Origin: a phage
Sequence record: PZ445447.1
Length of the DNA: 64,000 bases
Strand: one strand, 5' to 3'
The first letter of the stretch is position 1; the number at the start of each line of letters is the position of its first letter. The position numbers and the translations under genes are program-made. Positions 17,658 through 60,266 of the stretch are shown piece by piece. The notes under the pieces were generated by a model that had not been told where the DNA came from, did no database searches, and was given only the letters and a program-made list of their open reading frames with translations.

Positions 17658-17777
17658 ATGAGCACTGCACGCCAACACACAAAGGTAACGATTATCGTTT
17701 GCATCATTGGTTACATCCTGGCGCAAATGTTGATGGGTAGCGCCAATGATTTCGCAAAATTTTTCTTAGACTTTTAA
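17658..17777 (+). CDS. hypothetical small membrane peptide (39 aa)
   Basis: AAAGGAGG RBS 7 nt upstream; hydrophobic core VTIIVCIIGYILAQMLMG; not in ORF track. Confidence 0.45.
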   Translation: MSTARQHTKVTIIVCIIGYILAQMLMGSANDFAKFFLDF

Positions 17778-19735: not shown

Positions 19736-20359
19736 ATGACCACCGTTAACATTACCACAGGTTGCAATTTATCTTTCGACGTGCTGACCGACGAACAAAA
19801 AGAAAAAGCTATTGAAATGGTCCGCGAAAGAGAAGAACACAGCGGAGAGGATTTTTTCGCAGAAAGTGTAATTGAATATTATAAAGAACAAGTTTTTCCA
19901 GAGTACGGCCTTGAAGATACCGATGTACATTGGTCCGGCTTTTGGTGTCAAGGCGATGGCGCGTCAATTAGTGCTGAAAATGTAGACTTAGAGAAATTCT
20001 TGCGTAAAGTCAAGGCCCTGACCAAGTTCCGATCAATTCGTCACTTGTTCGGCACAATGCACGATGGCGAACTATCAGCCAGTGTTGAACGCGACAAGTA
20101 CAGCCATTACAGCCATGAAAACACTGTAAGCGGATATATTGATACTACCTGGCTAGATCTGACCGCAAAACAAGAAAATAAAGTAGAAGATCTGGAAGAG
20201 CTGATCACCGAGACGGTACGGGAGCTATCCCGCAAGGTTTATGTAGACCTGGAGGAGGCCTATCTTGAACAGTTTACTACCGAAAACCTGATCGGCCTTA
20301 TTGAAGCCAATGATTGGCGGTTTGATGTGGATGAATATGGAGAAATGAGTTTTTCATAA
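19736..20359 (+). CDS. hypothetical protein
   Basis: AATAGGAGAAAATATCATG leader; 207 aa; no confident family. Confidence 0.6.
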   Translation: MTTVNITTGCNLSFDVLTDEQKEKAIEMVREREEHSGEDFFAESVIEYYKEQVFPEYGLEDTDVHWSGFWCQGDGASISAENVDLEKFLRKVKALTKFRSIRHLFGTMHDGELSASVERDKYSHYSHENTVSGYIDTTWLDLTAKQENKVEDLEELITETVRELSRKVYVDLEEAYLEQFTTENLIGLIEANDWRFDVDEYGEMSFS

Positions 20360-20450
20360 ATAAAGTGTTGCAATAATCTAAAAACCTGCTATATTAAAAC
20401 TTAAGGGGGCGAGATGACTTGCCCCCACACAAAACAAAGAGGAAAACATC

Positions 20451-20831
20451 ATGAAAAACACTACTAAAGCTATTGACACCGTTATGTTTAACCTGGTTAC
20501 ATTCCGTGAAGATATGAAAGATCTTCCACGTGAAACAGTGTGCGACCATATCGAAAACTATCGCAAACTAATCAAAGAGTTGCCTTTAAAACGTGACCAG
20601 TACGCGGCTAACGCTATGCTTAACGCCATGATCAAGAAAATGATTCAGTGCGATTTGACTTTAGCTTATGATTATGCAGGTGGTCGTTTTGCAGTATACA
20701 ATCAGCCCGTGCCTGGTATGAGCACCACAGAAGAATTGCACGCGTTAAATCTAAAACAAGACGTATGGGATAACATGCCCCGCGTGGTGGTGTGGGCAGA
20801 AAGCGGAAAGATTTACGGCGATAATTTTTAA
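20451..20831 (+). CDS. hypothetical protein
   Basis: Promoter, hairpin GGGGGCGAGATGACTTGCCCCC and AAAGAGGAAAACATCATG leader. Confidence 0.6.
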   Translation: MKNTTKAIDTVMFNLVTFREDMKDLPRETVCDHIENYRKLIKELPLKRDQYAANAMLNAMIKKMIQCDLTLAYDYAGGRFAVYNQPVPGMSTTEELHALNLKQDVWDNMPRVVVWAESGKIYGDNF

Positions 20832-20840
20832 TCAGGTAAC

Positions 20841-20866
20841 AGGCGGCATATTTGCCGCCTTATTGT
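20841..20866 (+). terminator. rho-independent terminator
   Basis: AGGCGGCATATTTGCCGCCT then T-rich. Confidence 0.65.
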
Positions 20867-20895
20867 TAAACAGAACTGCAAAAGAGGTACATAGA

Positions 20896-21267
20896 ATGGA
20901 ATTTATTATTTTGGCTGTAGTAGTTGCCTTGTTCAACGCCTGGATCGCTGGCAAGATGGGTAGATCCGCTTTTCTATGGTTTGTTATATCTATTTTCCTG
21001 GGAGTGGTTGCAACTATTGTATTGGTTATCCTTGCAATTGTTGACAAGGGGAATAATAGAAAGGGTAAAGTATTTTCAGACCTGTACGACGCTCAAACGT
21101 TTGTCAACGCCTATTATAGTGATCTTCCAGTCTCCCTACGTTGCAGCCTTGCACAACAGGTTTTCGATGAAGCTAAAACCAGAGATCACGCCCATGAGAT
21201 TTGTTTAACTGAGGCGGATCGCCTATTTGAGAGGAATAGAAAATATGTGGACCAGCCGTTTAAATAA
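20896..21267 (+). CDS. hypothetical membrane protein (two predicted TM helices)
   Basis: AAAGAGG RBS; in frame with ORF 20863-21267. Confidence 0.55.
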   Translation: MEFIILAVVVALFNAWIAGKMGRSAFLWFVISIFLGVVATIVLVILAIVDKGNNRKGKVFSDLYDAQTFVNAYYSDLPVSLRCSLAQQVFDEAKTRDHAHEICLTEADRLFERNRKYVDQPFK

Positions 21268-21377
21268 TGCCACGTTAATTAACCCCTTTAGTGAAGATTT
21301 GAAGCCAGCCGCCTGGCGGGATGGATTCAATAACGAAAGCTTTATTTTCAGGCCTGATCTTAAGGAATTTTATAACA

Positions 21378-21503
21378 ATGGATCGAACAACGACAGAGAT
21401 AATTTTTCTTGTAATGTGCGTGGTGATAATACTCCTGGGGGCCATTGCAAACCACGTCACTGCTAACAGGAGGAAAGGGGGAGACGATGACACCCAAGGA
21501 TAA
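21378..21503 (+). CDS. hypothetical small membrane peptide (41 aa)
   Basis: AAGGA upstream; TM helix IIFLVMCVVIILLGAI with charged tail; the overlapping ORF 21245-21466 is N-rich low complexity. Confidence 0.4.
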   Translation: MDRTTTEIIFLVMCVVIILLGAIANHVTANRRKGGDDDTQG

Positions 21504-21606
21504 GCCCCGCACCGATAAGGCGCGCCGTGTTATGGTATGGCTTGAGATCATCGCCCTTGAAATATTGTTAGGCGTAGGGATGTATTTTATCGCTGTAAGT
21601 AACTGA
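21487..21606 (+). CDS. hypothetical small membrane peptide (39 aa)
   Basis: AGGAGGAAAGGGGGAG RBS; basic N-terminus then TM helix; not in ORF track. Confidence 0.4.
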   Translation: MTPKDKPRTDKARRVMVWLEIIALEILLGVGMYFIAVSN

Positions 21607-21745
21607 TAACGGCCCCGATCCCTGGGGCCTAACTTTTCAAATTTTTTCTCCCTGAGTGTTGCAATCCGATCCAGAATATGGATAATAACAATCAACGGGG
21701 AGACACTCCCCACCGCATAGACAAAGTTCCAAAAGGAGAAACAAA

Positions 21746-21946
21746 ATGAGCAACAATATCCGCGTTATTAACTTCAAAAAAGAAGAAAAAATTGCCGTGC
21801 TGATTGACGGTCAAGAAATCTTTAAAGGTGATTATGAAGATCATCAAACGGCGATTAGTATCACTCGCGTGATTGGTTACCATAATTTTTACCCTCAAGG
21901 CGCTGAGGCAGCAGTAAAACGAATTAAAGAGATTGTAGGCCTGTAA
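21746..21946 (+). CDS. hypothetical protein
   Basis: TTGCAA...TGGATAATAA promoter-like sequence, hairpin GGGGAGACACTCCCC, AAAGGAGAAACAAAATG. Confidence 0.6.
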   Translation: MSNNIRVINFKKEEKIAVLIDGQEIFKGDYEDHQTAISITRVIGYHNFYPQGAEAAVKRIKEIVGL

Positions 21947-21948
21947 AA

Positions 21949-21994
21949 TTTATTTTTAGATGGCCTTGACTCCAGGGCCATCAATAAAGTAAAT
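21949..21994 (+). repeat. repeated intergenic cassette, copy 3
   Basis: TTTATTTTTAGATGGCCTTGACTCCAGGGCCATCAATAAAGTAAAT. Confidence 0.7.
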
Positions 21995-22031
21995 TTAAAC
22001 CCTGTTAAAATAATCAGTGCAAAAAGGAGTA

Positions 22032-22337
22032 ATGATCATGTTTATCCAGGCTAATAATCTTTATTTCTTTGATGGTCAGATCGTAGACGGCGTGGAGGTG
22101 GAAATCACCGGGTGCCCTGGCGGTCAGGTTATGACTTTTCGGAATAATGCCTTTGATGATTCTCATATCGTTATGAGAATGGAAGTTAGTAAGCTGGATG
22201 ACAAGAAAACACTTATCGACTATTCCGTCAAAGATCATCCAGACTACCACATGATCTATGGTGATTTGTGCATTGTTGACCGTGACAAGGTGGGCGGCAT
22301 TGTGATCGCTATTGTGAACGATGTTTTCTCAAACTAA
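22032..22337 (+). CDS. hypothetical protein
   Basis: AAAGGAG RBS; in frame with ORF 22017-22337. Confidence 0.55.
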   Translation: MIMFIQANNLYFFDGQIVDGVEVEITGCPGGQVMTFRNNAFDDSHIVMRMEVSKLDDKKTLIDYSVKDHPDYHMIYGDLCIVDRDKVGGIVIAIVNDVFSN

Positions 22338-22354
22338 TTTCAGCAGGTGATTTT

Positions 22355-22705
22355 ATGAAAGTAAAACTATATTACCTTAATGAGCTTAACCCCCTTGCCC
22401 AGGTCCGCGCCCTGGCTAATACCTTGATTTGTGAGAAATCTGTATATTGTGTTGAGCTTAACGCCATGCGTGAACGTCTCAAAGGTGGTTACTTTGACAT
22501 CCATGCTGCAATCAACGGCCTGAATATGGAATTTATCCGCTTACGTAACAGCCGCCAGAATCTGGCAAGAATGGAACAAGATCCGGCCCACCTTCGTAAG
22601 CTGGTTATTGAAAATCATCTGATGTTTAATGCCGATGGTGATTATTACCATTTTCACCGTAAACGCTGGTACCGTAGCGGCAATATAGGAAAGAATGCAA
22701 AATAA
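22355..22705 (+). CDS. hypothetical protein
   Basis: 116 aa; followed by two hairpins. Confidence 0.55.
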   Translation: MKVKLYYLNELNPLAQVRALANTLICEKSVYCVELNAMRERLKGGYFDIHAAINGLNMEFIRLRNSRQNLARMEQDPAHLRKLVIENHLMFNADGDYYHFHRKRWYRSGNIGKNAK

Positions 22706-22742
22706 GGCCCCTGGCAGGGCCTGCAGCGATATAATCACATAA

Positions 22743-22774
22743 AGGCTATGCGGTTGCATAGCCTTTATTATTTT
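22743..22774 (+). terminator. rho-independent terminator
   Basis: AGGCTATGCGGTTGCATAGCCT then TTATTATTTT. Confidence 0.7.
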
Positions 22775-22911
22775 GGCGTTACAGCGGCCCCCAAGGCGCT
22801 TAAAAAATTTTTAAAGAAGTACTTGCATCAAGTCCTACAATATGGATAATAAAGGGTGTCGGGGGGCGGGGAGGCCTCCAATCATTAACCGGATAGATAG
22901 GAGTTAAAACC

Positions 22912-23196
22912 ATGGCTATTGTTACCGTTGGCGATGTAATAGAAATGGAAGCCAAATACTTAAAAGCTGGTATGCATATCATACGGAATGATCAAGAATT
23001 GTTATTAACCATGGTTGAATATAATCCCGGTCAGGATTATCCAAGCATTGACTACTTTTTCCAGTATGTTGATGAAGAATTAAAAGAGGATGAGGCTTAT
23101 CAGGGTGAATTTTGTAATTTCTTTTGCTCTGATGAGGTTGTAAAAGTTATCTATCAACCTGGCGTACCTTTCCCGCTGCACGCTATCAATAAATAA
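22912..23196 (+). CDS. hypothetical protein
   Basis: ATAGGAGTTAAAACCATG leader; 94 aa. Confidence 0.6.
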   Translation: MAIVTVGDVIEMEAKYLKAGMHIIRNDQELLLTMVEYNPGQDYPSIDYFFQYVDEELKEDEAYQGEFCNFFCSDEVVKVIYQPGVPFPLHAINK

Positions 23197-23252
23197 ACCT
23201 GGCGGGGCCGAAAAGGCCCCCCAATTATGAAAATAAAGAGAGGCAAATCATC

Positions 23253-23486
23253 ATGATGGAACAAATTAAACGCGCCGAGGCTATTAATGGCAACGTGATC
23301 TATTTTGTCAGCAAAAACGAAAAAGGCGTACCCTATGCGGCTGTAATAGTACAGCCTGACGGCGATTATTGGTGCACTGTGTACGGCGCTTATTCTTTTG
23401 GGCGTCCAGTGCATGATAAAATTTTGAAAGTAGCGAACCCTACCGGGAAAAATATTACAGCAGAAAAATTTTTTGAAAATAGTTGA
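23253..23486 (+). CDS. hypothetical protein
   Basis: AAGAGAGG RBS; 77 aa. Confidence 0.55.
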   Translation: MMEQIKRAEAINGNVIYFVSKNEKGVPYAAVIVQPDGDYWCTVYGAYSFGRPVHDKILKVANPTGKNITAEKFFENS

Positions 23487-23510
23487 CATGACCTTATAAG
23501 ACTGTAGAAT
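23483..23510 (+). promoter_or_regulatory. sigma70-type promoter
   Basis: TTGACA, 16 nt spacer, TAGAAT; followed by hairpin GGGGGCAACAAGCCCC. Confidence 0.6.
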
Positions 23511-23561
23511 ATAAATCAAAGGGGGCAACAAGCCCCACCAACCACAAAGAGGATAAAAATC

Positions 23562-23741
23562 ATGGCTATTATTGCAAAGACTGAGATCGTAGGCTTAGAT
23601 TCTATTCTCCTCGCATATGAGGAAGCTATAGAAATGTATGTGGTTTCCTATGGTGAATATATCCGTGAATATAAATCTATTGATCTAGCTTTTGAATGTT
23701 ATATTCGCCAGGTCAATAAAGCATATGATGATTATCGTTAA
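23562..23741 (+). CDS. hypothetical small protein (59 aa)
   Basis: Complete promoter-hairpin-AAAGAGGATAAAAATCATG module; clean 59-codon frame; not in ORF track. Confidence 0.5.
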   Translation: MAIIAKTEIVGLDSILLAYEEAIEMYVVSYGEYIREYKSIDLAFECYIRQVNKAYDDYR

Positions 23742-23747
23742 AATAGT

Positions 23748-23776
23748 TTGACAACAGTCAACAATCTGGTAAAGTG
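23748..23776 (+). promoter_or_regulatory. sigma70-type promoter
   Basis: TTGACAACAGTCA (same -35 context as the promoter at 8022); followed by hairpin GCGGGAATACTTCCCGC. Confidence 0.5.
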
Positions 23777-23823
23777 TACTACATAGCGCGGGAATACTTC
23801 CCGCCATTAATGAGGGTAATTTA

Positions 23824-23961
23824 ATGAAAACTTTCAACGCAACAGCCTCGACAATTGGTTATATTATTACAGTACAGGCCGTGGATCTGGTAGCAGCAGC
23901 AAACAAGATTAAAAAGATGATTCCGCCAGGTAGTGAATTTTCCGTTTGGGAAGTAAAATAA
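23824..23961 (+). CDS. hypothetical small protein (45 aa)
   Basis: ATG after AATGAGGGTAA leader; frame verified codon by codon to TAA at 23959. Confidence 0.4.
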   Translation: MKTFNATASTIGYIITVQAVDLVAAANKIKKMIPPGSEFSVWEVK

Positions 23962-24044
23962 ATCTTGACAATAGTTTATTACTTGATAGACTGTATTTCG
24001 TAGGGCGGGGCAATAAGGCAACGCCCATTAATGAGGGTAGAATC

Positions 24045-24149
24045 ATGTTAGAGAAAATTTTCACGGTTGTAGTAGTTGGCCTGGCATTATCGGTTGGAGT
24101 GGTTGCAACTATGGCTAACATGATCCTATCTTCCCACGGTATCGGTTAA
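24045..24149 (+). CDS. hypothetical small hydrophobic peptide (34 aa)
   Basis: Promoter (TTGACA 23965), hairpin, AATGAGGGTAGAATCATG leader; sequence LEKIFTVVVVGLALSVGVVATMANMIL. Confidence 0.45.
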   Translation: MLEKIFTVVVVGLALSVGVVATMANMILSSHGIG

Positions 24150-24159
24150 GGTGAATCAA

Positions 24160-24375
24160 ATGATCACGAATAAGACAGGTAAAACAGAATTTTTACGCGG
24201 CTTGCAAATAGGTAAGCCTGAGATCTGGCATTGCACTAAAACACCACGTGACGAAATGAAAGACTTCACCGCCACGCTGCAACGGGTAAAGATATCCATC
24301 ACGCAGAAAAAGGCCTTGATAGTGGTGGAAGGTGAGATCCCTCAAACCGTTGTTATAGTTGAGCGTACAGCATAG
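24160..24375 (+). CDS. hypothetical protein
   Basis: AAGGTG RBS; 71 aa. Confidence 0.5.
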   Translation: MITNKTGKTEFLRGLQIGKPEIWHCTKTPRDEMKDFTATLQRVKISITQKKALIVVEGEIPQTVVIVERTA

Positions 24376-24466
24376 TTTAATTTATAGCGATACCTGAAAA
24401 TTAACCAATAAATCATAAACAGGCGGTTACCGCCGCCTTAAACGTAGCAGAAAGAGGCTAGACACA

Positions 24467-24751
24467 ATGAAAAAGATGATCGCAGTAGTTGCCCTGGTTG
24501 TTGGACTTAATGCGCCTGTAATGGCTAAAGAGCTGGCAAAAGAGGTTAATCTAACGGATATCCATGCCGTCAATCAAATCGGGGTTACTTATCGCTTATG
24601 CCTTGCCGCTAAAACTTTTAATGACGGCACAACAGAGTACTACGGATTCGAGGGTATCCGGTGCGGTGAGCTTGCTCGCGACCTTAAGGAAGATCCAGAC
24701 CTGGAAGATCTGCCCATCACCGTAAACGGTAAAGCTTACGTAAACCGTTAA
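24467..24751 (+). CDS. hypothetical secreted protein
   Basis: AAAGAGG RBS; N-terminal signal-peptide-like MKKMIAVVALVVGLNAPVMA. Confidence 0.6.
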   Translation: MKKMIAVVALVVGLNAPVMAKELAKEVNLTDIHAVNQIGVTYRLCLAAKTFNDGTTEYYGFEGIRCGELARDLKEDPDLEDLPITVNGKAYVNR

Positions 24752-24900
24752 CCGTGAAAAAGATAATCATTACCTTGGGGATTGTGGCGGGATCGCTGGC
24801 GCTCTTTCCCCTTATGGTTAGATATGTGCTGATCAGTATTGTCCTGGTGGTCAGTGATCTACTAGAAACGGTTGGCACCTTGTTTTAAAGAGCGATAAAA

Positions 24901-26806: not shown

Positions 26807-29273
26807 CTGCTCTTCCCCCTACCATAAACGGCCCTACCTGGCAAGTGGAATAATTGACGAGCCATCAATCCCACACACTGTACAAACATACATATAAAAT
26901 AACTATTGCATAATTTTTCATTGTGTGGTAGCAGGGCCATTTTTACACGTTTTTCCTTCCAAAATTGCACGTAATGCAGCATTTGCACAAAATTTAACCT
27001 GATGCATATATTCAATAGCTTGTCAACAACTAAAAATCTTTATAAGTCATACACTTACATAACTACAAAAGCGTTTTCTACGTGAAAAATCGAGTATAAC
27101 TATAGCCGCCAGATCTCAGAATTTACGTACGCTCGCCATTCTATAGCCTGCTAAGCATTTATTCCAACCATAGAATAACGGAATAGTCAATACCTGCATA
27201 AAATAATTATTCGTGTAAACTGCATAACATAAATCGGCCCAGGTGTCAACATTTTTCGTAAACAGTCTGGAATTGTCACGTTAGGTTACCATAAGCAGAG
27301 AAATCTTCAGTCGTCTAATGTTTACTGTACGTTACTATATTAACTGAAATCATTAGATGACTAATAGAAAGATAAGAAATAATTAACAATACAATTATTT
27401 TATCTGTAACAATAAGGCAACTATGCAAACGAATGGCATGGCGCGACGGAGTCGCGACATAATATAAAAGCAGTAACCATCACCCCCGTGATAGTTTGTC
27501 TGCAAACTATTAATCAGATCATAGTTGCCTTGTATTTAGTTAATCATGACATAACAAGCAAGGCAACTATAGATCTGCTAATAGTTGCCCTGCTTTTATA
27601 TTATGTCATGCTAATTATAATCAGTGCGATTATTGTCATGTATAATTATTGTCATGCAAACGAATGGCATGGCTGATTATCGGTGTGTAAACAGTCAATC
27701 ATGTAAATGGTTAGCATGTGAACAATCAGGAATGTAAACAATCCAGTGTGTAAACTAATAGGTGTGTAAAAGTGTCATGTTGTGTCAGTTAGGTCACATT
27801 ATGTCAGACAAGTTTTTCTCCTCTTTGTCAAGTGCTGCATGAAAAATTTACAAGCTTGTATGGTAGCATTTTTGCGGCCCTGTTTACATTCAGGAGTGTA
27901 TGTATAATCCTTGGTGTGTGGGCGTTTAGACGTCTGGACGGTAAGAAGTCTGCAGGTTAATATCTAATCTATCGGCTGCTAACTATATCCCACACAAATA
28001 GTAAGAAATATAATTGTTATGTGCGTAAACAGTAACCCATGTTATCAATCCCTGTATGTATCGCCAGTGGTGCGCATAATGGGTATTATGTTAAATTGCC
28101 CGTAATGATAAAGGTTCTCACAATGATAGGTATTCTCATTCACCCTCACAAAATAGATTGCAAATGTTGTGCCACTGTGTGAACGGCCTCACCTATTAAT
28201 TTGCCTCACTGCCTCGATATTTGAGAATTATTATAAGAATGAGAAGTATTCCCATTTCGTCCGCCTGGCAGCACTCCAGTCGCTACGGCTCATGACAGGG
28301 CAGCACTCCTGTAGGTCAGGTCAAAATCGTGGTAGAATTGGGCCTGTTCAGATATTTCTGGCTGACTCTTCAGGTCTGTGTGGGAAAAGCCAACCTCTCC
28401 GGCGGGGCAGGGGGTCATGACGGGAAAATTGCAGGTCAATTAAAAAATTTACGTGGTGTATGAAGCGCTCTTCAGGTAAGGCAGGTATTAGAGGATGAAA
28501 CCCTCTTCAGGCAATGATATTTGTGGGTGTGATATTTGCTGGAAAGCCAGATATGACGGGACTCCCGGCGGGGATGGGGTAGTACAGACAGGGAAAATAT
28601 GGGGATGTAGTTGGGTAAATTGATCAGGCAGGTAGAGTATGGATTATGTTACAGGTATGTTAAATATGGAGGTTGAATATCTGTAAGATTTGTGTGTAAA
28701 ATCAAAGACTTAAGTGGTGTTGTGGTATTTTCTATAAATAATTCAAGTTTAATAGGTAATATTTGTCTCTATCCACTTTGTGTGGTAAACAGATTCAGAT
28801 GAAATTGGTTTACAAGTGTATACATAATATACAAATTAAAGATACAAGAAACCCCCCTCCCCTTCGGCTACCATTCACCTTTTCCTCTGACTGGTACTTA
28901 AACACTTATTCAGACTCTTCAGGTTATCACCCATATATCATATGGCAGTGACTGGTGTCCTCCGGCCCCTCTTTCGTCACCCGTCCGCTTCGCCATGCTA
29001 ATGCCATAGCCAATGGTTCGGTTGTTCACCCTGTTCACTCAGGTGTATCTCCATACCCCTTCAAACCGAAGAGAACAGAAAACCCGAATTACTCGGTAAA
29101 AGAAAAGAGAAGAACTTAATTTTATCAAGATAGGCAAGAATGTCAAGGCATGACTGCTCACTAAACAAGCAAACAGTCATGTGTGGGAGGTAAGTGATTG
29201 TGGTTGTAGGAAATTTAGTTGAAAGATGTGTTATAGGTGCTTCCAGCACTTTAGCCGGGTAGCTAATTGTGTG
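26807..29273. other. large non-coding, repeat-rich region between convergent gene blocks (candidate origin, packaging or regulatory hub)
   Basis: No ORF with credible RBS; AT-rich; inverted repeats around 27425-27610 (ATAGTTGCC in alternating orientation); five TGTAAA(C) repeats 27680-27770; CTCTTCAGG four times 28366-28930. Confidence 0.5.
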
Positions 29274-29780: not shown

Positions 29781-30026
29781 TCACTCCTTTGGATGTCTCT
29801 TCAGATGCATGTGTGTGTTGATCATGTTCCACCCGTGAGTATTCCGGCAACAGCTGCTATGGACGTAATGATCATCAGGATCACCACCAAAACCTCTGAC
29901 AATGTTTTCATTGTGTATCCCATATTCTCCAAATGATGTGTGGATATTATCACTGGAGCGGTAATGTGTCAACAGAAACGCCGCGAGGGTTTGGTTAAAA
30001 TCCGAGCGTATGGTGATTTGGGTCAA
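29781..30026 (-). CDS. hypothetical protein
   Basis: ORF track only; weak RBS. Confidence 0.3.
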   Translation of the reverse strand: MTQITIRSDFNQTLAAFLLTHYRSSDNIHTSFGEYGIHNENIVRGFGGDPDDHYVHSSCCRNTHGWNMINTHMHLKRHPKE

Positions 30027-31209: not shown

Positions 31210-31461
31210 TTAACGTTCTACAAAAATACCGTTCAGTTCAATAACCAGGAATTTCTGGTCTTCACTATCGTCTCGTGCCAGCACCTCACAGACGTATCGG
31301 TCATCCCCATCATCATCGCAGTCAAATACAAGACTGAGGACTTTATCATGGTAAACCTTCGCCACTACCGCCTCGTAAGTATTGCCGATTGTGAATCCAA
31401 GATAATCTCCGATGCATTTGACAACAACATGGTCTCCAGCATTTAAGTCAATCTTCGTCAT
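31210..31461 (-). CDS. hypothetical protein
   Basis: ATG after AAGGAGC RBS; acidic DCDDDGDDRY segment. Confidence 0.55.
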   Translation of the reverse strand: MTKIDLNAGDHVVVKCIGDYLGFTIGNTYEAVVAKVYHDKVLSLVFDCDDDGDDRYVCEVLARDDSEDQKFLVIELNGIFVER

Positions 31462-31588
31462 TACTGCGCTCCTTGGGTAATAATACTGTATGTAAAACTT
31501 TAACCAGAGATGTGAATAACGCCCCAAAACACACCGATAGCGCTAAAACAGACAAGGCCATCATTAAAGCTTCAGTAAAATCAGTCAT
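31448..31588 (-). CDS. hypothetical small membrane peptide (46 aa)
   Basis: AAGAGGTGAGGA RBS then ATG; sequence MTDFTEALMMALSVLALSVCFGALF...; not in ORF track. Confidence 0.4.
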   Translation of the reverse strand: MTDFTEALMMALSVLALSVCFGALFTSLVKVLHTVLLPKERSNDED

Positions 31589-31616: not shown

Positions 31617-31880
31617 TCATTTATCCTTGTCGTCAAGAACTTTTTTAAATCTTTCAGGGATATCTCCCGTTCTTAGATAGTTCATGACCTCGCAAGGTTC
31701 CCACTTGAATTTCTTACAGAGCAGGGCGGCTGAGATTGTTTCATTGCGAAAAGAAAGGATATTAATATCCCACTCTGAGAACCCCAACTTCCGAAGGGTA
31801 GCTACAGAAATCCTCACCGCAACCCAGCAGCAAAAACATGCAACAAACGCCACTGCTACAACCCACATCAGGATGTTCAT
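31617..31880 (-). CDS. hypothetical membrane protein
   Basis: AAGGTG RBS; N-terminal TM helix; 87 aa. Confidence 0.55.
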   Translation of the reverse strand: MNILMWVVAVAFVACFCCWVAVRISVATLRKLGFSEWDINILSFRNETISAALLCKKFKWEPCEVMNYLRTGDIPERFKKVLDDKDK

Positions 31881-31889
31881 ATAAGCACC

Positions 31890-31973
31890 TTACTGAAATA
31901 CAAGACACAGTGTTAAGGTTACTGACCAGCAAATAATTAGCAGGACCATTGCAACCTTGGCAAGATTTATCAT
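31890..31973 (-). CDS. hypothetical small hydrophobic peptide (27 aa)
   Basis: ATGA overlap with upstream stop; AGAGG upstream. Confidence 0.3.
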   Translation of the reverse strand: MINLAKVAMVLLIICWSVTLTLCLVFQ

Positions 31974-34656: not shown

Positions 34657-34758
34657 TTAATAGCCGTAACCTAACACATTAACTACAACTGCGATTGCAA
34701 ACATAATTTCAAAGCATGCAATCTCTACATTTGGGACTAATTTCTTAATCACACCCAT
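34657..34758 (-). CDS. hypothetical small hydrophobic peptide (33 aa)
   Basis: GAGGTG RBS then ATG; not in ORF track. Confidence 0.3.
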   Translation of the reverse strand: MGVIKKLVPNVEIACFEIMFAIAVVVNVLGYGY

Positions 34759-34767
34759 TGTAGCACC

Positions 34768-35088
34768 TCATTCTCCAAAGTCAATCTTTACTTTGCCTTT
34801 CCCCTTACCTTTCTTTCCACCGCATTTAGCCAGCTGACGTGCTGCAACATCTACCATACGGTCAGTTGCCTCGTAAGCATCACTGCCTTTAGCCTTGGCA
34901 ATAACTTCTTTTCCAGAATTGTCAAAAATGAACGCCATAACTTCCTGGTGATCATTTTCAACTTTTACACTCACACGTGCATAGTTAACAGAGGGATGTA
35001 AACGCTCCAGCTTGGACATTTTGCGGGAAATAAAAGATACCATACCTTCTGTGATTTCTACATTGTTGCCAGTGATTTCAATCTGCAT
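34768..35088 (-). CDS. hpf: ribosome hibernation promoting factor / RaiA (YfiA) family protein
   Basis: MQIEITGNNVEITEG...KVENDHQEV...GSDAYEATDRMVDVAARQLAK lines up with E. coli HPF as I recall it (MQLNITGNNVEITEA...KVEKV...GQDMYAAIDGLIDKLARQLTK); own minus-strand promoter. Confidence 0.85.
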   Translation of the reverse strand: MQIEITGNNVEITEGMVSFISRKMSKLERLHPSVNYARVSVKVENDHQEVMAFIFDNSGKEVIAKAKGSDAYEATDRMVDVAARQLAKCGGKKGKGKGKVKIDFGE

Positions 35089-47592: not shown

Positions 47593-49908
47593 TTATAGTG
47601 CACAACTTTCGCAATACGGATCTTCAACCGAACTATCTGCAATCAAAGGGTAGTTCTTTCTGGTTTCATCTTCAGCCTGTTTCTTGGCATGAAGTTCCTC
47701 TGCCAATGAGTCACCAGCACCAACCCTGGAGTTTAAATAATACCATGTCTTCATCCCGAATTTAGTGGCACGGATAAGGTACCCTAGCTGCTCCTTCATT
47801 GAAATTTTACCATCTTTCAACTTGGTGTAATCTATGTATAAATCCGCGCTGATTGCCTGACCTGTAAATTTTTGAATCACAGCATACATATCGATCATGT
47901 CGTTAGTATCAACGTCCCAAGCCGAGGTGTAATACTCTTTCAACTCATCATAGTCAGGAACGATAAACAGCACCTGCCCTTGTGGCGACTTTTTAAAGAT
48001 AATGTGCTCACGGACAGGATAAACCCCGTTAGTGGTGTTTGTTGCCAGCGAAGAGCTTTCATTAGGCATATATGCTTCAAGAACGCTATTACGTAGCCCA
48101 CCATTCTCAATGATTTCTTTACGTAACCCTTCCCAATCCTGTTTAAGAGAAGGATCTTTCACCACGCTATCGACCTCTTTGTTATAGGTGTCGATTGGTA
48201 ACCAACCTTCTGGATATTTTGTTTTATGCATCCACTCGCAGACACCACGCTCTTTTGCCAACCGTAAACTTGCCTTATGCAAGCTGTAGCTGTGAAGTTC
48301 TGCAAGATCGTGAACGAGCTGTTTACTTTCAGGAGACCCGTAAGTAACCTTGTGGCTGGCAATAAAATGTGCAACATTGGTAAGGCCAACCCCGATGGAT
48401 CTGCGTTTTTTAACTGTGCTTTCCATATTTTCATACGGATATGTCATGATTTCCATAACATTGTCAATCATAAGCACCGTATAGTATGCAACATCCTCAT
48501 ACTCCTCTGGAGTAACCCTCCCAGCTACAAGAGATGACAGGAAGCACAATGCAACCTCTCCATCATCAGCATCGTACTTGAAGATATTACGCATATCTGA
48601 ATAGCCTTTTGTCGGGAGGGCTATTTCTGCACACAGGTTGCTTGAATAGATCACATCTTTAAAAGGTGTATGTCTATTCATCTCATCTGTCCAGTATACG
48701 TACAGCCTTCCCACCTCAGTGCGCTGCGTGATCAGTTCAACAGCAAGATCTCTAGCTCGGATCCATGTTTTAGGAATACTGTCATCTTTAGCAATACGAT
48801 CAACCTCTGCATCAAACTCCTCCATAGACATGGTGAAGATACCCTCATGCAGTTGAGGCGCGTGCTTATAAGAAACAAGCATCCAATCTAAATTCTTAGC
48901 CACACGGTTGATAAACGACCTATTAATACCGATGGAGTAGTCCATGGTGTTGATTCTTTTTGAAGCAACAGTCATAGGGTTTCTCAAACGGATTAGCTCA
49001 TCAATCTGCGGGTCCAGTGCAAGGAATGATACTGTTGCAGAACCACCACGTGATTGTTGTCTGTTCTCCTTAACCCCAGCATCAATACCTCGATAATATG
49101 GAATCTTACCCATATGTTTAATAGTGTTACCACGAACACCATCGCCTGCAGATCTTGAGGATAAGTAGTAGCCGATACCTGCTTGGTTAACCGTCATTGT
49201 GTACGCAACTTCACGTGCCACACCAATAGATTTTGCTGTATCGTCAGCTTTTATTACACAACAAGATGCATACCCTGTCTTACCTGTGCGCAGCCCGTTT
49301 AAGTACGGTGTTGGGGCATTGATCTTTAAGTCGGACAGATAAGTGTATAATTTTACAACATCGTTGATACGACGTTCTTTCGGCATATTCTTCATGACAG
49401 CCATTGCTATCCCCATAAACATCATCTGGGGAGATTCAAACAAGGTGTCTTTAAGAGTATCCTTGATCCCGTATTTGTCGCGAAACTGTTTAAGGACTGC
49501 ATAGCCATAACCGAGATCTTTACTGTGGTCAATAACAGCGTCTAAAGTGTTTAGCTCGGTAAAGCTATAACCCATATCCTCCCAATAACCTTTCTCAACC
49601 ATGTCATTGTAAAATGATGGTAAGGAAGGGATCTTTGTAAACCCTCCAAAAGCCTCTTTATAGATCTGACCAATAAGAACACGACCAGCCATACGGGAAT
49701 GTGCTTCGTCTTTACGGCTAACACAAGAGTCTATAATAGCTTGGTTAACTTCTTTGGTTGTACATCCATCATACAACCGCTTGTAGGCATCCAGTGCAAT
49801 ATGTGACCAATTGCCGTTACCATCGTCACCGAAAATAGCTGCCTTATTTAAACGTTCTGGATCGAATGCCACTTCACATCCGTTGCTTTTAATTACCTTG
49901 GTGATCAA
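47593..49908 (-). CDS. nrdA: ribonucleotide reductase large subunit (class I, alpha)
   Basis: ATP-cone N-terminus; NLCAEIALPT active-site motif; C-terminal CESCAL; 771 aa. Confidence 0.9.
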   Translation of the reverse strand: MITKVIKSNGCEVAFDPERLNKAAIFGDDGNGNWSHIALDAYKRLYDGCTTKEVNQAIIDSCVSRKDEAHSRMAGRVLIGQIYKEAFGGFTKIPSLPSFYNDMVEKGYWEDMGYSFTELNTLDAVIDHSKDLGYGYAVLKQFRDKYGIKDTLKDTLFESPQMMFMGIAMAVMKNMPKERRINDVVKLYTYLSDLKINAPTPYLNGLRTGKTGYASCCVIKADDTAKSIGVAREVAYTMTVNQAGIGYYLSSRSAGDGVRGNTIKHMGKIPYYRGIDAGVKENRQQSRGGSATVSFLALDPQIDELIRLRNPMTVASKRINTMDYSIGINRSFINRVAKNLDWMLVSYKHAPQLHEGIFTMSMEEFDAEVDRIAKDDSIPKTWIRARDLAVELITQRTEVGRLYVYWTDEMNRHTPFKDVIYSSNLCAEIALPTKGYSDMRNIFKYDADDGEVALCFLSSLVAGRVTPEEYEDVAYYTVLMIDNVMEIMTYPYENMESTVKKRRSIGVGLTNVAHFIASHKVTYGSPESKQLVHDLAELHSYSLHKASLRLAKERGVCEWMHKTKYPEGWLPIDTYNKEVDSVVKDPSLKQDWEGLRKEIIENGGLRNSVLEAYMPNESSSLATNTTNGVYPVREHIIFKKSPQGQVLFIVPDYDELKEYYTSAWDVDTNDMIDMYAVIQKFTGQAISADLYIDYTKLKDGKISMKEQLGYLIRATKFGMKTWYYLNSRVGAGDSLAEELHAKKQAEDETRKNYPLIADSSVEDPYCESCAL

Positions 49909-59795: not shown

Positions 59796-60266
59796 TCAAT
59801 CAAGGACAACACCGCCTGCCTTTTTAAACACCTCGATCAACTTCTCGATCTTCTGTTCATGCTGACCATATCCAGCACCAGGTAACGAAGCCCAGCGGGA
59901 ACGGCATTTATGGATAGCCTCGTGGATACGCCCTTCGTCAATGTCGGCGAGAGCCTTGCACTCACGGATCAGTTGCAACGCAATCTTGTCCTGACTGGCG
60001 GGGCCAAAATCTGGCAATCCTAACTGTTCCATGTAGTGTTTAGCAAACTTCTCCAAAACCTGGTAACGACCAGCAGCGGAGGAGGTAAGTTTAGCATTTA
60101 GCTTAACGTACACACCTGGATGCTTGCTGTAATCGCTAAACAGCTTGCCACCAACTATGACATCGTATCCCCGATCCTTAGTGGGTTGCCTACCATTATC
60201 TGTGCCTTCCGAATATGCGATCATGTCCAAGAAAGCTTTTCGTTGAACATTTTTATCAAGTTTCAT
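59796..60266 (-). CDS. endolysin, phage lambda R-like lytic transglycosylase
   Basis: QRKAFLDMIAYSEGTDNGRQ...GYDVIVGG...AGRYQ...WASLPGAGYGQHEQK matches lambda R nearly end to end as I recall it. Confidence 0.9.
   Translation of the reverse strand: MKLDKNVQRKAFLDMIAYSEGTDNGRQPTKDRGYDVIVGGKLFSDYSKHPGVYVKLNAKLTSSAAGRYQVLEKFAKHYMEQLGLPDFGPASQDKIALQLIRECKALADIDEGRIHEAIHKCRSRWASLPGAGYGQHEQKIEKLIEVFKKAGGVVLD

Follow-up and report, generated by a model that had tools for sequence, protein, structure and literature searches.

Do the very short open reading frames at positions 21378-21606 of this phage genome encode membrane proteins, and what could such proteins do during infection? We addressed this question in a 64,000-nucleotide stretch of sequence record PZ445447.1 (the window), which comes from a Vequintavirus (an rV5-like phage of E. 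coli) and is 99.8-100% identical to Escherichia phage MaxBurger (Bas54). The original prediction had grouped the two frames at this locus with five others in the window as genes for single-helix membrane peptides. Conservation supports this core reading, as do a synonymous excess confined to the proposed frame in six of the seven cases and published transmembrane (TM) calls for five (one of them through an allelic peptide).

Seven frames for single-helix peptides

All seven frames are present exactly as described, at the same coordinates and with the same lengths. All begin with an ATG that is 4-11 nt downstream of an SD-like motif, as expected from the ribosome-binding sites attributed to them, and each contains a single hydrophobic stretch whose mean Kyte-Doolittle score over 19 residues (KD19) is 2.08-2.77, where 1.6 is the usual threshold. 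The peptides, which we call A through G, are 27-46 aa long with one hydrophobic helix apiece, and they agree in size (at most 50 aa) and helix content (one of about 19-23 residues) with small single-pass membrane proteins. A screen of the whole window for ATG-initiated frames of 25-60 aa with KD19 >= 1.8 and an SD motif recovers exactly these seven and one further candidate (48395-48484). The latter lies antisense within a 771-aa NrdA-like gene and was rejected as a false positive. In 100 first-order Markov random sequences, the number of such ORFs is 1.6 +/- 1.3 and never exceeds 5, versus the 8 observed.

Among 12-20 related Vequintavirus sequences, nearly all keep the seven frames open. An IMG/VR scan gave two loci, and relatives were taken from GenBank phage records instead. 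The predicted single TM helices also agree with the literature, where TMHMM/Phobius calls of "1 TMD" have been published in rV5 for gp173, the allelic peptide at the D locus, as well as for the orthologues of A, C, E, and G. Across 20 distinct relatives, six of the frames (A-F) have an excess of synonymous changes in their own frame only, and the two alternative frames are neutral or close to it everywhere (the +1 frame of E is borderline, p = 0.05); these and the following selection p-values are approximate, as the sequences are related and event counts are parsimony-like. Because the frames are conserved and six of the seven carry this frame-specific synonymous excess, we regard them as genuine genes. 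We found no Vequintavirus ribosome profiling, peptidomic, or transcriptomic data covering these genes in the literature.

The suggestion that the ORF track had missed these genes applies to two of them. The frame at 21378-21503 (B) is overlooked in most records and the one at 31890-31973 (F) in all annotated records sampled, whereas the five that begin at 17658, 21487, 24045, 31448, and 34657 are already annotated as CDSs in MaxBurger and other records. These five belong to PHROG families of unknown function (16391, 13629, 14631, 16755, and 15151, respectively). In rV5, gp193, gp181, gp173, gp156, and gp145 are each listed as "membrane protein, 1 TMD" (Kropinski et al. 2013, Table S3). Matches in position, length, and sequence make A, C, E, and G direct orthologues of gp193, gp181, gp156, and gp145; D is allelic to gp173 and not its direct orthologue, and B and F are absent from both the rV5 annotation and PHROGs. 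Five of the seven peptides add nothing new, as they are already annotated and published as hypothetical membrane proteins. What is new here is the choice of frame at 21378-21503 and the unannotated 27-aa gene at 31890-31973, which together represent a modest annotation gain within an ordinary gene class.

Two similar genes are absent from the predicted set. One of them (24754-24888, plus strand) is annotated as bas54_0128 and encodes a 44-aa small membrane protein from a GTG start with a KD19 of 2.49. It can be matched by size and position to rV5 gp170, which is also described as "1 TMD" (Kropinski et al. 2013, Table S3). The other (29822-29923, minus strand) encodes a 33-aa membrane peptide that is annotated in MaxBurger (bas54_0138; KD19 2.95).

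Peptides B and C and the tail of ORF182

The flagged locus contains, in order on the plus strand, the gene for a 123-aa membrane protein (20896-21267), ORF182 (21245-21466; bas54_0116, named after its rV5 counterpart and also denoted B0), peptide B (21378-21503), peptide C (21487-21606), and a terminator. The first of these genes corresponds to rV5 gp183 (dN/dS 0.07) and opens a stretch that is bounded by two terminator-like hairpins. The hairpin that closes the gene string (21611-21629) has seven pairs, six of them GC, followed by a T-rich tract, and a terminator is annotated at the same place in Murica. An AlphaFold model of the 123-aa protein has two TM helices and a three-helix domain (pLDDT 71). 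BASEL records label this protein a "putative holin", but it has no significant Pfam match, and a fold search (BFVD) hits only its own family, with holin entries at E > 1. Lacking support from either search, the label was not used as a functional clue. An antisense 117-aa ORF at 21360-21713 was also set aside, as stops or frameshifts break it in all 18 other distinct relatives.

Peptide B (41 aa) consists of one TM helix and then RRK, and its gene is overprinted on the tail of ORF182, with a 3' end that contains the SD and start of peptide C. The N-terminal ~45 codons of ORF182 are constrained (synonymous excess in 21245-21377, p = 3e-4). Within the overlap, dN/dS is 0.35 in the B frame (p = 0.003) versus 1.2 in the ORF182 frame (p = 0.74), and the mean BLOSUM62 score of replacements is +0.19 in B versus -0.85 in ORF182. 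Those in B are conservative and hold KD19 at 2.5-2.9, whereas those in the ORF182 tail are radical. The ORF182 stop also varies by phage, falling at codon 74 or 82. Judged by these substitution patterns, the peptide frame is the constrained one in the overlap, and the ORF182 tail evolves freely.

The B frame is open in 15/15 aligned relatives, with its C terminus altered in one, and each of the 119 records with this region has tblastn matches that cover >= 80% of B and of C. Among the records inspected, B is annotated only in Gotham; elsewhere the longer ORF182 is called over it, and a database of 5.8 billion proteins contains only two clusters of B. Its SD (AAGGA or GAGGA) is located 11 nt from the ATG, a spacing longer than optimal. 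An extended, 60-aa version of B that would begin at the ATG at 21321 was rejected, as 21321-21377 is unconstrained in that frame (pN/pS 1.02, versus 0.54 in the ORF182 frame).

As a small membrane-protein gene that covers the 3' portion of a longer ORF in another frame, B is comparable to the out-of-frame overlapping phage genes lambda Rz1 within Rz and phiX174 E within D. B is not an embedded o-spanin like Rz1, however, since it has no lipobox: in FLVMCVVIILLG the Cys is inside the helix and has Met at -1, and no periplasmic domain follows this Cys. The overlapped part of ORF182 also seems unconstrained, unlike these precedents, and the arrangement looks like overprinting on a dispensable tail, not true dual coding.

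It is highly improbable that ORF182 and B constitute a single ~85-aa membrane-anchored protein whose synthesis involves programmed +1 frameshifting at TTT_T (21367-21370). With respect to ORF182, B is in the +1 frame, and this frame is open from 21321; a TTTT run with AAGGA before it stands just upstream of the ATG of B, and constraint on ORF182 stops about where B starts. In prfB frameshifting, the slip site is followed by a stop or rare codon and the SD-like element is 3 nt away. Here the next codon is a common Tyr codon, which is neither, and the SD-like element is 1 nt from the slip site. Moreover, B has a conserved ATG and SD of its own, its frame is unconstrained upstream of this ATG (see above), and its positional analogue in a distant relative stands alone.

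Peptide C (39 aa; bas54_0117, rV5 gp181) starts inside the end of B and matches phrog_13629 at E = 7e-32 over 39/39 positions. It has a basic N-terminal tail that is followed by a C-terminal TM helix with two glutamates. Its dN/dS is 0.18-0.25 (synonymous excess p = 5e-5), and the helix is nearly invariant, with one conservative A/S change in 1 of 20 sequences. C is 77-100% identical in 119 genomes. A distant 132-kb Logan contig (SRR24653869_7377) that shares under 3% nucleotide similarity encodes a C homologue that is 62% identical, retains both Glu, and lies between two other TM ORFs, one of 33 aa with a perfect SD and one of 26 aa. In this contig, C is preceded by a positional analogue of B that is not overlapped. 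The charge distribution suggests that the basic N terminus of C is cytoplasmic and that its two Glu are buried in the helix. For B, the reverse orientation is probable, which would place its RRK motif inside.

Peptides A, D, E, F, and G

Peptide A (17658-17777, plus strand; 39 aa) is annotated as bas54_0107 and corresponds to rV5 gp193 and phrog_16391. Its one TM helix is accompanied by a short amphipathic C-terminal tail with little net charge, and the frame is open in 13/13 relatives with a synonymous excess in its own frame only (p = 5e-5). Peptide D (24045-24149, plus strand; bas54_0125, phrog_14631) is a TM peptide encoded by the last gene of a variable cassette. It occurs in two allelic 34-aa forms that have ATM(A/S)NMILSS(N/H)GIG in common, and every genome has one D allele despite 197-718 nt of variable content upstream. 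The synonymous excess for D (p = 0.02) comes from 12 events. The 46-aa rV5 gp173 appears to be over-extended at its N terminus relative to the conserved 34-aa form.

On the minus strand, peptide E (31448-31588; 46 aa) corresponds to bas54_0144, rV5 gp156, and phrog_16755 and has a TM helix with a charged C-terminal tail. It is open in 14/14 relatives with an ATG or GTG start (synonymous excess p = 0.002), and a promoter-like site (31636-31608) occurs just upstream. Peptide F (31890-31973, minus strand) is a 27-aa TM peptide with a start that overlaps the upstream stop (ATGA). Between F and E is a gene for an 87-aa protein with an N-terminal TM helix (31617-31880, minus strand; bas54_0145, KD19 2.62), such that three membrane proteins are encoded in a row. 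Peptide G (34657-34758, minus strand; 33 aa) is an annotated TM peptide (bas54_0154, rV5 gp145, phrog_15151) encoded 9 nt downstream of the phage RaiA/HPF-like gene. Its frame is open in 12/12 relatives, with the start lost in one, and is too conserved (94.8-100% nt identity, six substitution events) for the selection test.

The 27-aa F frame is open, with its start, stop, and ATGA coupling all kept, in 18/18 relatives down to 84.5% nt identity, and its changes across 18 sequences are all conservative. Its synonymous excess is restricted to its own frame and comes from 19 events (p = 0.03-0.035). F is conserved in 118 genomes; of 60 records sampled, 46 are annotated, and none of these has a feature where F matches. 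A regulatory site or RNA element in this spacer was considered and rejected, as its RNA fold is not unusual (z-score -0.04) and consensus promoters and terminators are absent; Rfam has no match anywhere in the window.

Some of these frames might not be genes at all: B could be a by-product of the ORF182 frame, and F and G could be spacers that are open by chance and hydrophobic through T-rich second codon positions. The window holds 31 hydrophobic ATG ORFs of 25-60 aa, among which the SD motif is not significantly enriched (OR 1.6, p = 0.24). The screen described above did yield one clear false positive, gene callers almost never predict B or F, and G carries no selection signal over its few events. 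We consider this reading very unlikely, however. The selection signal in the overlap is carried by B and not by ORF182, and a non-overlapped analogue of B precedes C in the distant relative. F retains its length and signals in every relative and changes only conservatively, G is annotated and has a "1 TMD" call in rV5, and the number of such ORFs exceeds that in the random sequences.

Possible functions of the peptides

Our best explanation, held with moderate confidence, is that these are real genes for 27-46-aa single-pass inner-membrane proteins in the early gene blocks of rV5-like phages, and that the proteins act via helix-helix contacts. All seven are located in two blocks of small genes in which a consensus scan finds sigma-70-type promoters. 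We read the blocks as early because of these promoters, with timing judged from the promoter consensus and gene context. Searches of Pfam, NCBIfam, PHROGs, and PDB sequences for families of known function returned only Vequintavirus orthologues or insignificant matches, the best of which were DUF6524 (E = 0.04), YqzM (0.08), and TimP (0.03). Nor did any family of known function emerge from 5.8 billion proteins searched by word index or from 1.84 billion representatives searched exhaustively with HMMER. Because no homology to characterized proteins was found, the mechanism is proposed by analogy. The peptides may insert into the membrane through SRP, as in the analogous case of YohP. Once inserted, they could contact larger host or phage membrane proteins helix to helix, and these contacts might tune or block membrane functions during host takeover instead of forming a lysis hole.

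Bacterial AcrZ, MgrB, MgtS, KdpF, and YohP are likewise shorter than 50 aa and have a single helix without a catalytic domain (PMC12648545; for YohP, PMC7549839), and YohP has the same length as F, 27 aa. AcrZ, MgrB, and MgtS act by helix contacts with larger membrane proteins, and there are precedents for small membrane proteins as regulators (PMC11237401; PMC7549839; PMC12648545). The bacterial small membrane proteins were recognized, like those described here, from a ribosome-binding site and conservation. The present peptides differ from them in being phage-encoded and limited to one genus, and they have no sequence similarity to them. The model that we adopt is Gp11 of the S. aureus phage PhiNM1, an early small membrane protein that binds the host membrane-associated proteins MurG and DivIC (PMC11237401). 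Its host and phage are different, it has no homology to the peptides, and function has been shown for Gp11 only.

Cell lysis is probably not the role of these peptides, and of the functions put forward in the original prediction, holin or antiholin is the least favored because the endolysin is 25-42 kb away. In a lysis-timing role, one or more peptides would serve as a holin, pinholin-like protein, antiholin, or holin modulator, possibly together with the 123-aa protein at 20896-21267. They are small membrane proteins with the one TM helix that is the minimum for a holin, B and E have charged C-terminal tails (RRKGGDDDTQG and PKERSNDED), the BASEL annotators call the 123-aa protein a putative holin, and the rV5-like holin is not experimentally defined. 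Lambda S105/S107, T4 T/RI, and BSPM4 ORF52 are small phage membrane proteins too, and the last is a single-TM modulator of holin timing (PMC11657625). However, the peptides are shorter than typical holins, have no homology to them, are found among small genes with sigma-70-type promoters in an early-type context, and are unlinked to the endolysin and to the spanins, which are reported beside the terminase. The endolysin (59796-60266, minus strand) is identified by the MaxBurger annotation, a visible YSEGT motif, and rV5 gp89 lysozyme (matched by length and relative position); a Pfam scan of this ORF gave nothing at E <= 0.001. The BASEL holin labels, applied where a holin homologue was absent, rested on small size, TM helices, and blastp/InterPro comparison, and neither Pfam nor the fold search supports a holin here. 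Kropinski et al. proposed a different gene, gp129, for this role. Finally, C, D, F, and G end 0-6 residues past the helix and have no charged C-terminal domain. On balance, involvement in lysis timing is unlikely.

The peptides could be superinfection-exclusion or injection-blocking factors that shield the infected cell from secondary phage, in the manner of Imm and Sp, two small membrane proteins made early by T4. Their early-type context and inner-membrane location agree with this role, and an arms race would fit both the fast divergence of B and the existence of two D alleles. Nevertheless, the peptides do not resemble Imm, Sp, or any exclusion family in sequence, and C and G are extremely conserved and not diversifying, which makes this function rather unlikely. 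We consider it quite unlikely that the peptides are membrane-perturbing toxins or viroporin-like pores of the TisB, Hok, TimP, or YohP type that depolarize the membrane for host shut-off. TimP, TisB, and Hok are similar in size, single hydrophobic helix, and inner-membrane location, and the two conserved in-helix glutamates of C are compatible with an ion-conducting oligomer. There is also the precedent of the 27-aa YohP, which depolarizes membranes according to a preprint (bioRxiv 10.1101/2025.05.06.652344). B does weakly match NCBIfam toxic_TimP (NF040796; E = 0.03), but its 14.5 bits are not significant against a cut-off of 45 and do not place it in the family. No antisense RNA partner or other type I hallmark was identified (consensus promoter and terminator scans gave nothing convincing on the opposite strand, and Rfam gave no match), and the setting is a lytic phage. 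The near-invariant C helix suggests a specific partner over generic membrane damage.

A more speculative and unlikely reading is that B and C form a small hetero-oligomeric membrane assembly, and that F, E, and the 87-aa protein between them form another. The B and C helices would be oppositely oriented, and the two buried glutamates of C would serve in an ion-conducting or partner-clamping complex early in infection. The B-like/C pairing would then be an old module that persists even in the 132-kb relative despite almost no nucleotide similarity, and B would have arisen, or would survive, by overprinting the dispensable ORF182 tail.

Standard gene callers overlook many of the tiny genes in phage genomes or place them in the wrong frame. 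The frame that most annotations ignore at 21378-21503 is the selected one, and the commonly annotated tail of ORF182 is not. A growing number of regulators and growth inhibitors are small membrane proteins, and C is a strongly constrained and deeply conserved candidate for functional work in Bas54, a widely used BASEL phage. If their partners are identified, the peptides could lead to host membrane targets that therapeutic E. coli phages of this common family exploit.

Small membrane-peptide frames in the rV5-like genome

The 20000-24500 segment has 248 matches among phage records, the top one being Escherichia phage MaxBurger (Bas54, MZ501093.1) at 99.8% identity, and the match is perfect (100%) over 20850-21750. 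The window therefore represents an rV5-like myovirus of the genus Vequintavirus, and adding 66024 converts its coordinates to those of the MaxBurger record. Only 119 records, every one a Vequintavirus, contain the 20850-21750 segment (85.8-100% identity); 17 of them are 'UNVERIFIED Campylobacter phage' entries that are Vequintavirinae by taxonomy.

The original prediction proposed seven short frames with good ribosome-binding sites that encode single-helix membrane peptides: A (17658-17777, +, 39 aa), B (21378-21503, +, 41 aa), C (21487-21606, +, 39 aa), D (24045-24149, +, 34 aa), E (31448-31588, -, 46 aa), F (31890-31973, -, 27 aa), and G (34657-34758, -, 33 aa). This observation is confirmed. 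All seven are located there and translate as described, each with one hydrophobic stretch (Kyte-Doolittle 19-residue mean of 2.08-2.77) and a Shine-Dalgarno-like (SD) motif 4-11 nt 5' of its ATG. A blind six-frame screen of the window for ATG-initiated frames of 25-60 aa with an SD motif and a 19-residue mean of >= 1.8 recovers these seven and one extra, 48395-48484 (+). This 29-aa hydrophobic ORF with an SD motif is treated as a false positive, lying antisense within a 771-aa NrdA-like gene (47593-49908, -). First-order Markov random sequences of the same composition contain 1.6 +/- 1.3 such ORFs. In the real sequence, hydrophobic ORFs show no significant enrichment for the SD motif (p = 0.24), so the pattern by itself is no more than suggestive and has to be backed by comparative data.

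Between 14.4 and 36.9 kb, 12 of the 65 annotated genes have a TM-like segment, as do 7 of the 13 genes of <= 50 aa. Two small single-helix membrane genes absent from the original list are annotated: 24754-24888 (+, 44 aa from a GTG start; bas54_0128), assigned to rV5 gp170 on size and position, and a 33-aa gene at 29822-29923 (-; bas54_0138).

The suggestion that the frames had been missed by annotation is mostly not borne out: it holds only for B, in large part, and for F in the sampled annotated records. Peptides A, C, D, E, and G are annotated in MaxBurger as bas54_0107, bas54_0117, bas54_0125, bas54_0144, and bas54_0154, and they belong to PHROGs 16391, 13629, 14631, 16755, and 15151, each of unknown function. 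The rV5 genome paper reports 15 proteins with transmembrane domains (Kropinski et al. 2013, PMC3606486), and its Table S3 lists gp193, gp181, gp173, gp156, and gp145 as 'membrane protein, 1 TMD'. Four of these five are direct orthologues of the window peptides, and gp173 is an allelic peptide at the 24045 locus. This class of gene is ordinary, and five of the seven are already in the literature. B has no PHROG, forms just two clusters in 5.8 billion predicted proteins, and among the records inspected is annotated in Gotham alone (F10B_0188). For F, 60 records were sampled from the 118 that contain it, and no feature lies beneath the match in any of the 46 that are annotated.

The roughly 2.5 kb between 26800 and 29270 has no annotated genes in MaxBurger, and an equivalent gap was noted in rV5 (PMC3606486). 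Here the plus-strand block (1-26.8 kb) and the minus-strand block (29.3-64 kb) converge and the GC skew changes sign. Short repeats are dispersed through the stretch. They comprise GTGTGTAAAC-type motifs at 27683, 27746, 28021, and 28692, a 20-nt sequence repeated exactly and in direct orientation at 27423 and 27654, and a perfect inverted repeat with 18-nt arms (27456-27473/27590-27607). Rfam gives no match. It may contain an origin, iterons, or a non-coding RNA.

Selection on the proposed frames

Minimum spanning trees of codons served to count substitution events in homologous regions from rV5, MiataMamis, phita32, Murica, ime, PDX, two IMG/VR contigs, and several unannotated records, among others; as many as 20 distinct sequences covered the B/C region. 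The frames are conserved in related phages, with every one open at the same length in essentially all relatives collected. Synonymous events exceed expectation solely in the proposed frame for A (p = 5e-5), C (p = 5e-5), E (p = 0.002), and D (p = 0.02 from 12 events). F also shows an excess (p = 0.026, or 0.035 with five more divergent genomes added; 19 events), and all p values from these counts, here and below, are approximate, as shared ancestry and recombination are ignored. For A and C-F the two alternative frames are at or near neutral, the +1 frame of E being borderline (p = 0.05), and pairwise Nei-Gojobori ratios agree with the event counts. The general reading of the frames as small membrane-peptide genes is supported.

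B belongs to a string of plus-strand genes that starts at a terminator-like hairpin (20841-20860) and continues with a 123-aa membrane protein gene (20896-21267), ORF182 of rV5 (bas54_0116, from 21245), B, and C, ending at a terminator hairpin (21611-21629) 3' of C. B and ORF182 use different frames where they overlap. Ahead of B, over 21245-21377, constraint falls on the ORF182 frame (p = 3e-4), whereas within the overlap (21378-21466) dN/dS is 0.35 in the B frame (p = 0.003) and 1.2 in the ORF182 frame (p = 0.74). Replacements in B are conservative, hydrophobic for hydrophobic (mean BLOSUM62 +0.19), and its 19-residue hydropathy stays at 2.5-2.9 in all variants; those in the ORF182 tail are radical (mean -0.85) and include one stop. 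The ORF182 stop also moves: the window and five relatives (Murica and PDX among them) encode 73 aa, one of them via an indel. In rV5 and eight more sequences the protein is 81 aa long, and its frame closes with an ATGA overlap onto C. The evidence at this locus leads us to conclude that B is a genuine gene, overprinted on an ORF182 tail that is dispensable, and that most annotations have chosen the wrong frame here. The final codons of B (KGGDDD) are conserved because they also encode the SD motif and start codon of C. A 60-aa extension of B from an ATG at 21321 is unsupported (pN/pS 1.02), and a 117-aa antisense ORF (21360-21713) is interrupted in all 18 of the other distinct relatives.

D is the last gene of a variable cassette (23742-24159) between the ORF174 and ORF172 homologues. 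The cassette spans 197-718 nt and its inserted genes differ by phage, but a 34-aa hydrophobic peptide is invariably last. D has two allelic forms that share ATM(A/S)NMILSS(N/H)GIG, and rV5 gp173 as annotated (46 aa) is probably over-extended at its N-terminus. F shares an ATGA start-stop overlap with the gene 5' of it. An 87-aa protein whose helix is N-terminal is encoded 9 nt after F, and E comes next, so that three membrane proteins occur in a row; promoter and terminator consensus sequences are absent from the F spacer, and its RNA fold is unremarkable. G is 94.8-100% identical across 118 genomes within a stretch of unusually low diversity (34.0-35.5 kb, pi 0.005-0.08 across the genus). It lies 9 nt 3' of a phage gene for a RaiA/HPF-like ribosome hibernation factor (34768-35088, -), annotated in rV5 as 'sigma 54 modulation factor'.

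Possible functions

Pfam, NCBIfam, PHROGs, PDB, and Rfam provide no functional link for the peptides. A holin role is a weak candidate. The endolysin gene (59796-60266, -) is 25-42 kb distant, spanins are reported beside terminase, and the published holin candidate is a different gene, gp129 (PMC3606486). BASEL 'putative holin' labels without a homologue derive from small size, TM helices, and blastp/InterPro comparison, and the one on 20896-21267 finds no support from Pfam or fold search. Moreover, the small genes that surround the peptides have sigma-70-type promoters and intrinsic terminators, a context suggestive of early or middle expression. Possible roles are in superinfection exclusion, in depolarising the membrane, or in the timing of lysis. 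By analogy, we think the most likely mechanism is that the peptides would bind larger host or phage membrane proteins by helix-helix contacts during host takeover. The analogues are bacterial small membrane proteins (PMC12648545); YohP, which is inserted by SRP (PMC7549839); and Gp11, an early phage protein that binds MurG and DivIC (PMC11237401).

The soluble C-terminal domain of the 20896-21267 product has homologues in E. coli genome contigs, perhaps in prophages; these are 92-94-aa single-TM proteins that align with roughly one-half to two-thirds of the query at 73-80% identity. The annotated endolysin (156 aa) has a YSEGT motif. Our Pfam scan gives it no family at E <= 0.001, unlike the rV5 paper, which reports PF00959 for gp89 (PMC3606486); this discrepancy may be a search-filter effect.

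Peptide C and its distant relative

C (MTPKDKPRTDKARRVMVWLEIIALEILLGVGMYFIAVSN) starts with a basic tail, continues into a helix containing two glutamates, and ends just two residues past that helix; the positive-inside rule predicts an N-in, C-out topology. Among 20 distinct sequences the helix from W18 to V37 varies by a single conservative substitution (A to S in one of them), and every nucleotide change except the one behind A/S is at a third codon position. Both this near-invariance and the buried glutamates favor a specific partner. When C is searched exhaustively with HMMER against 1.84 billion representatives, a single cluster is recovered; its representative (MKNKDKPKPDGKWNHAIVWAEIIALELMLGLGMYFIAVGR) shares 62% identity with C and retains the two glutamates.

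This C homologue is encoded on a 132-kb Logan contig (SRR24653869) with <3% nucleotide similarity to any Vequintavirus (6 kb compared). Its 5' neighbor is a hydrophobic ORF of 33 aa whose TAAGGAGGT ribosome-binding site is perfect, and a 26-aa hydrophobic ORF lies 3'. The 33-aa ORF is a stand-alone positional analogue of B, to which it has weak similarity (pairwise E = 0.01). About 600 nt 5' of the C homologue, the same small-gene block encodes a 39-aa protein (L027:2285-2404) with a precomputed Pfam Lambda_Kil match; Kil is an FtsZ inhibitor.

The gains over existing annotation are modest: selection acts on the 21378 frame and not on the commonly annotated ORF182 tail, and the 27-aa gene F is conserved yet annotated in none of the sampled records. 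C is the best candidate for experiments in Bas54. On the coding strand of the 6-kb Logan stretch there are six small hydrophobic ORFs, each with an SD motif, and dense small membrane-peptide genes thus seem to be characteristic of this phage lineage.
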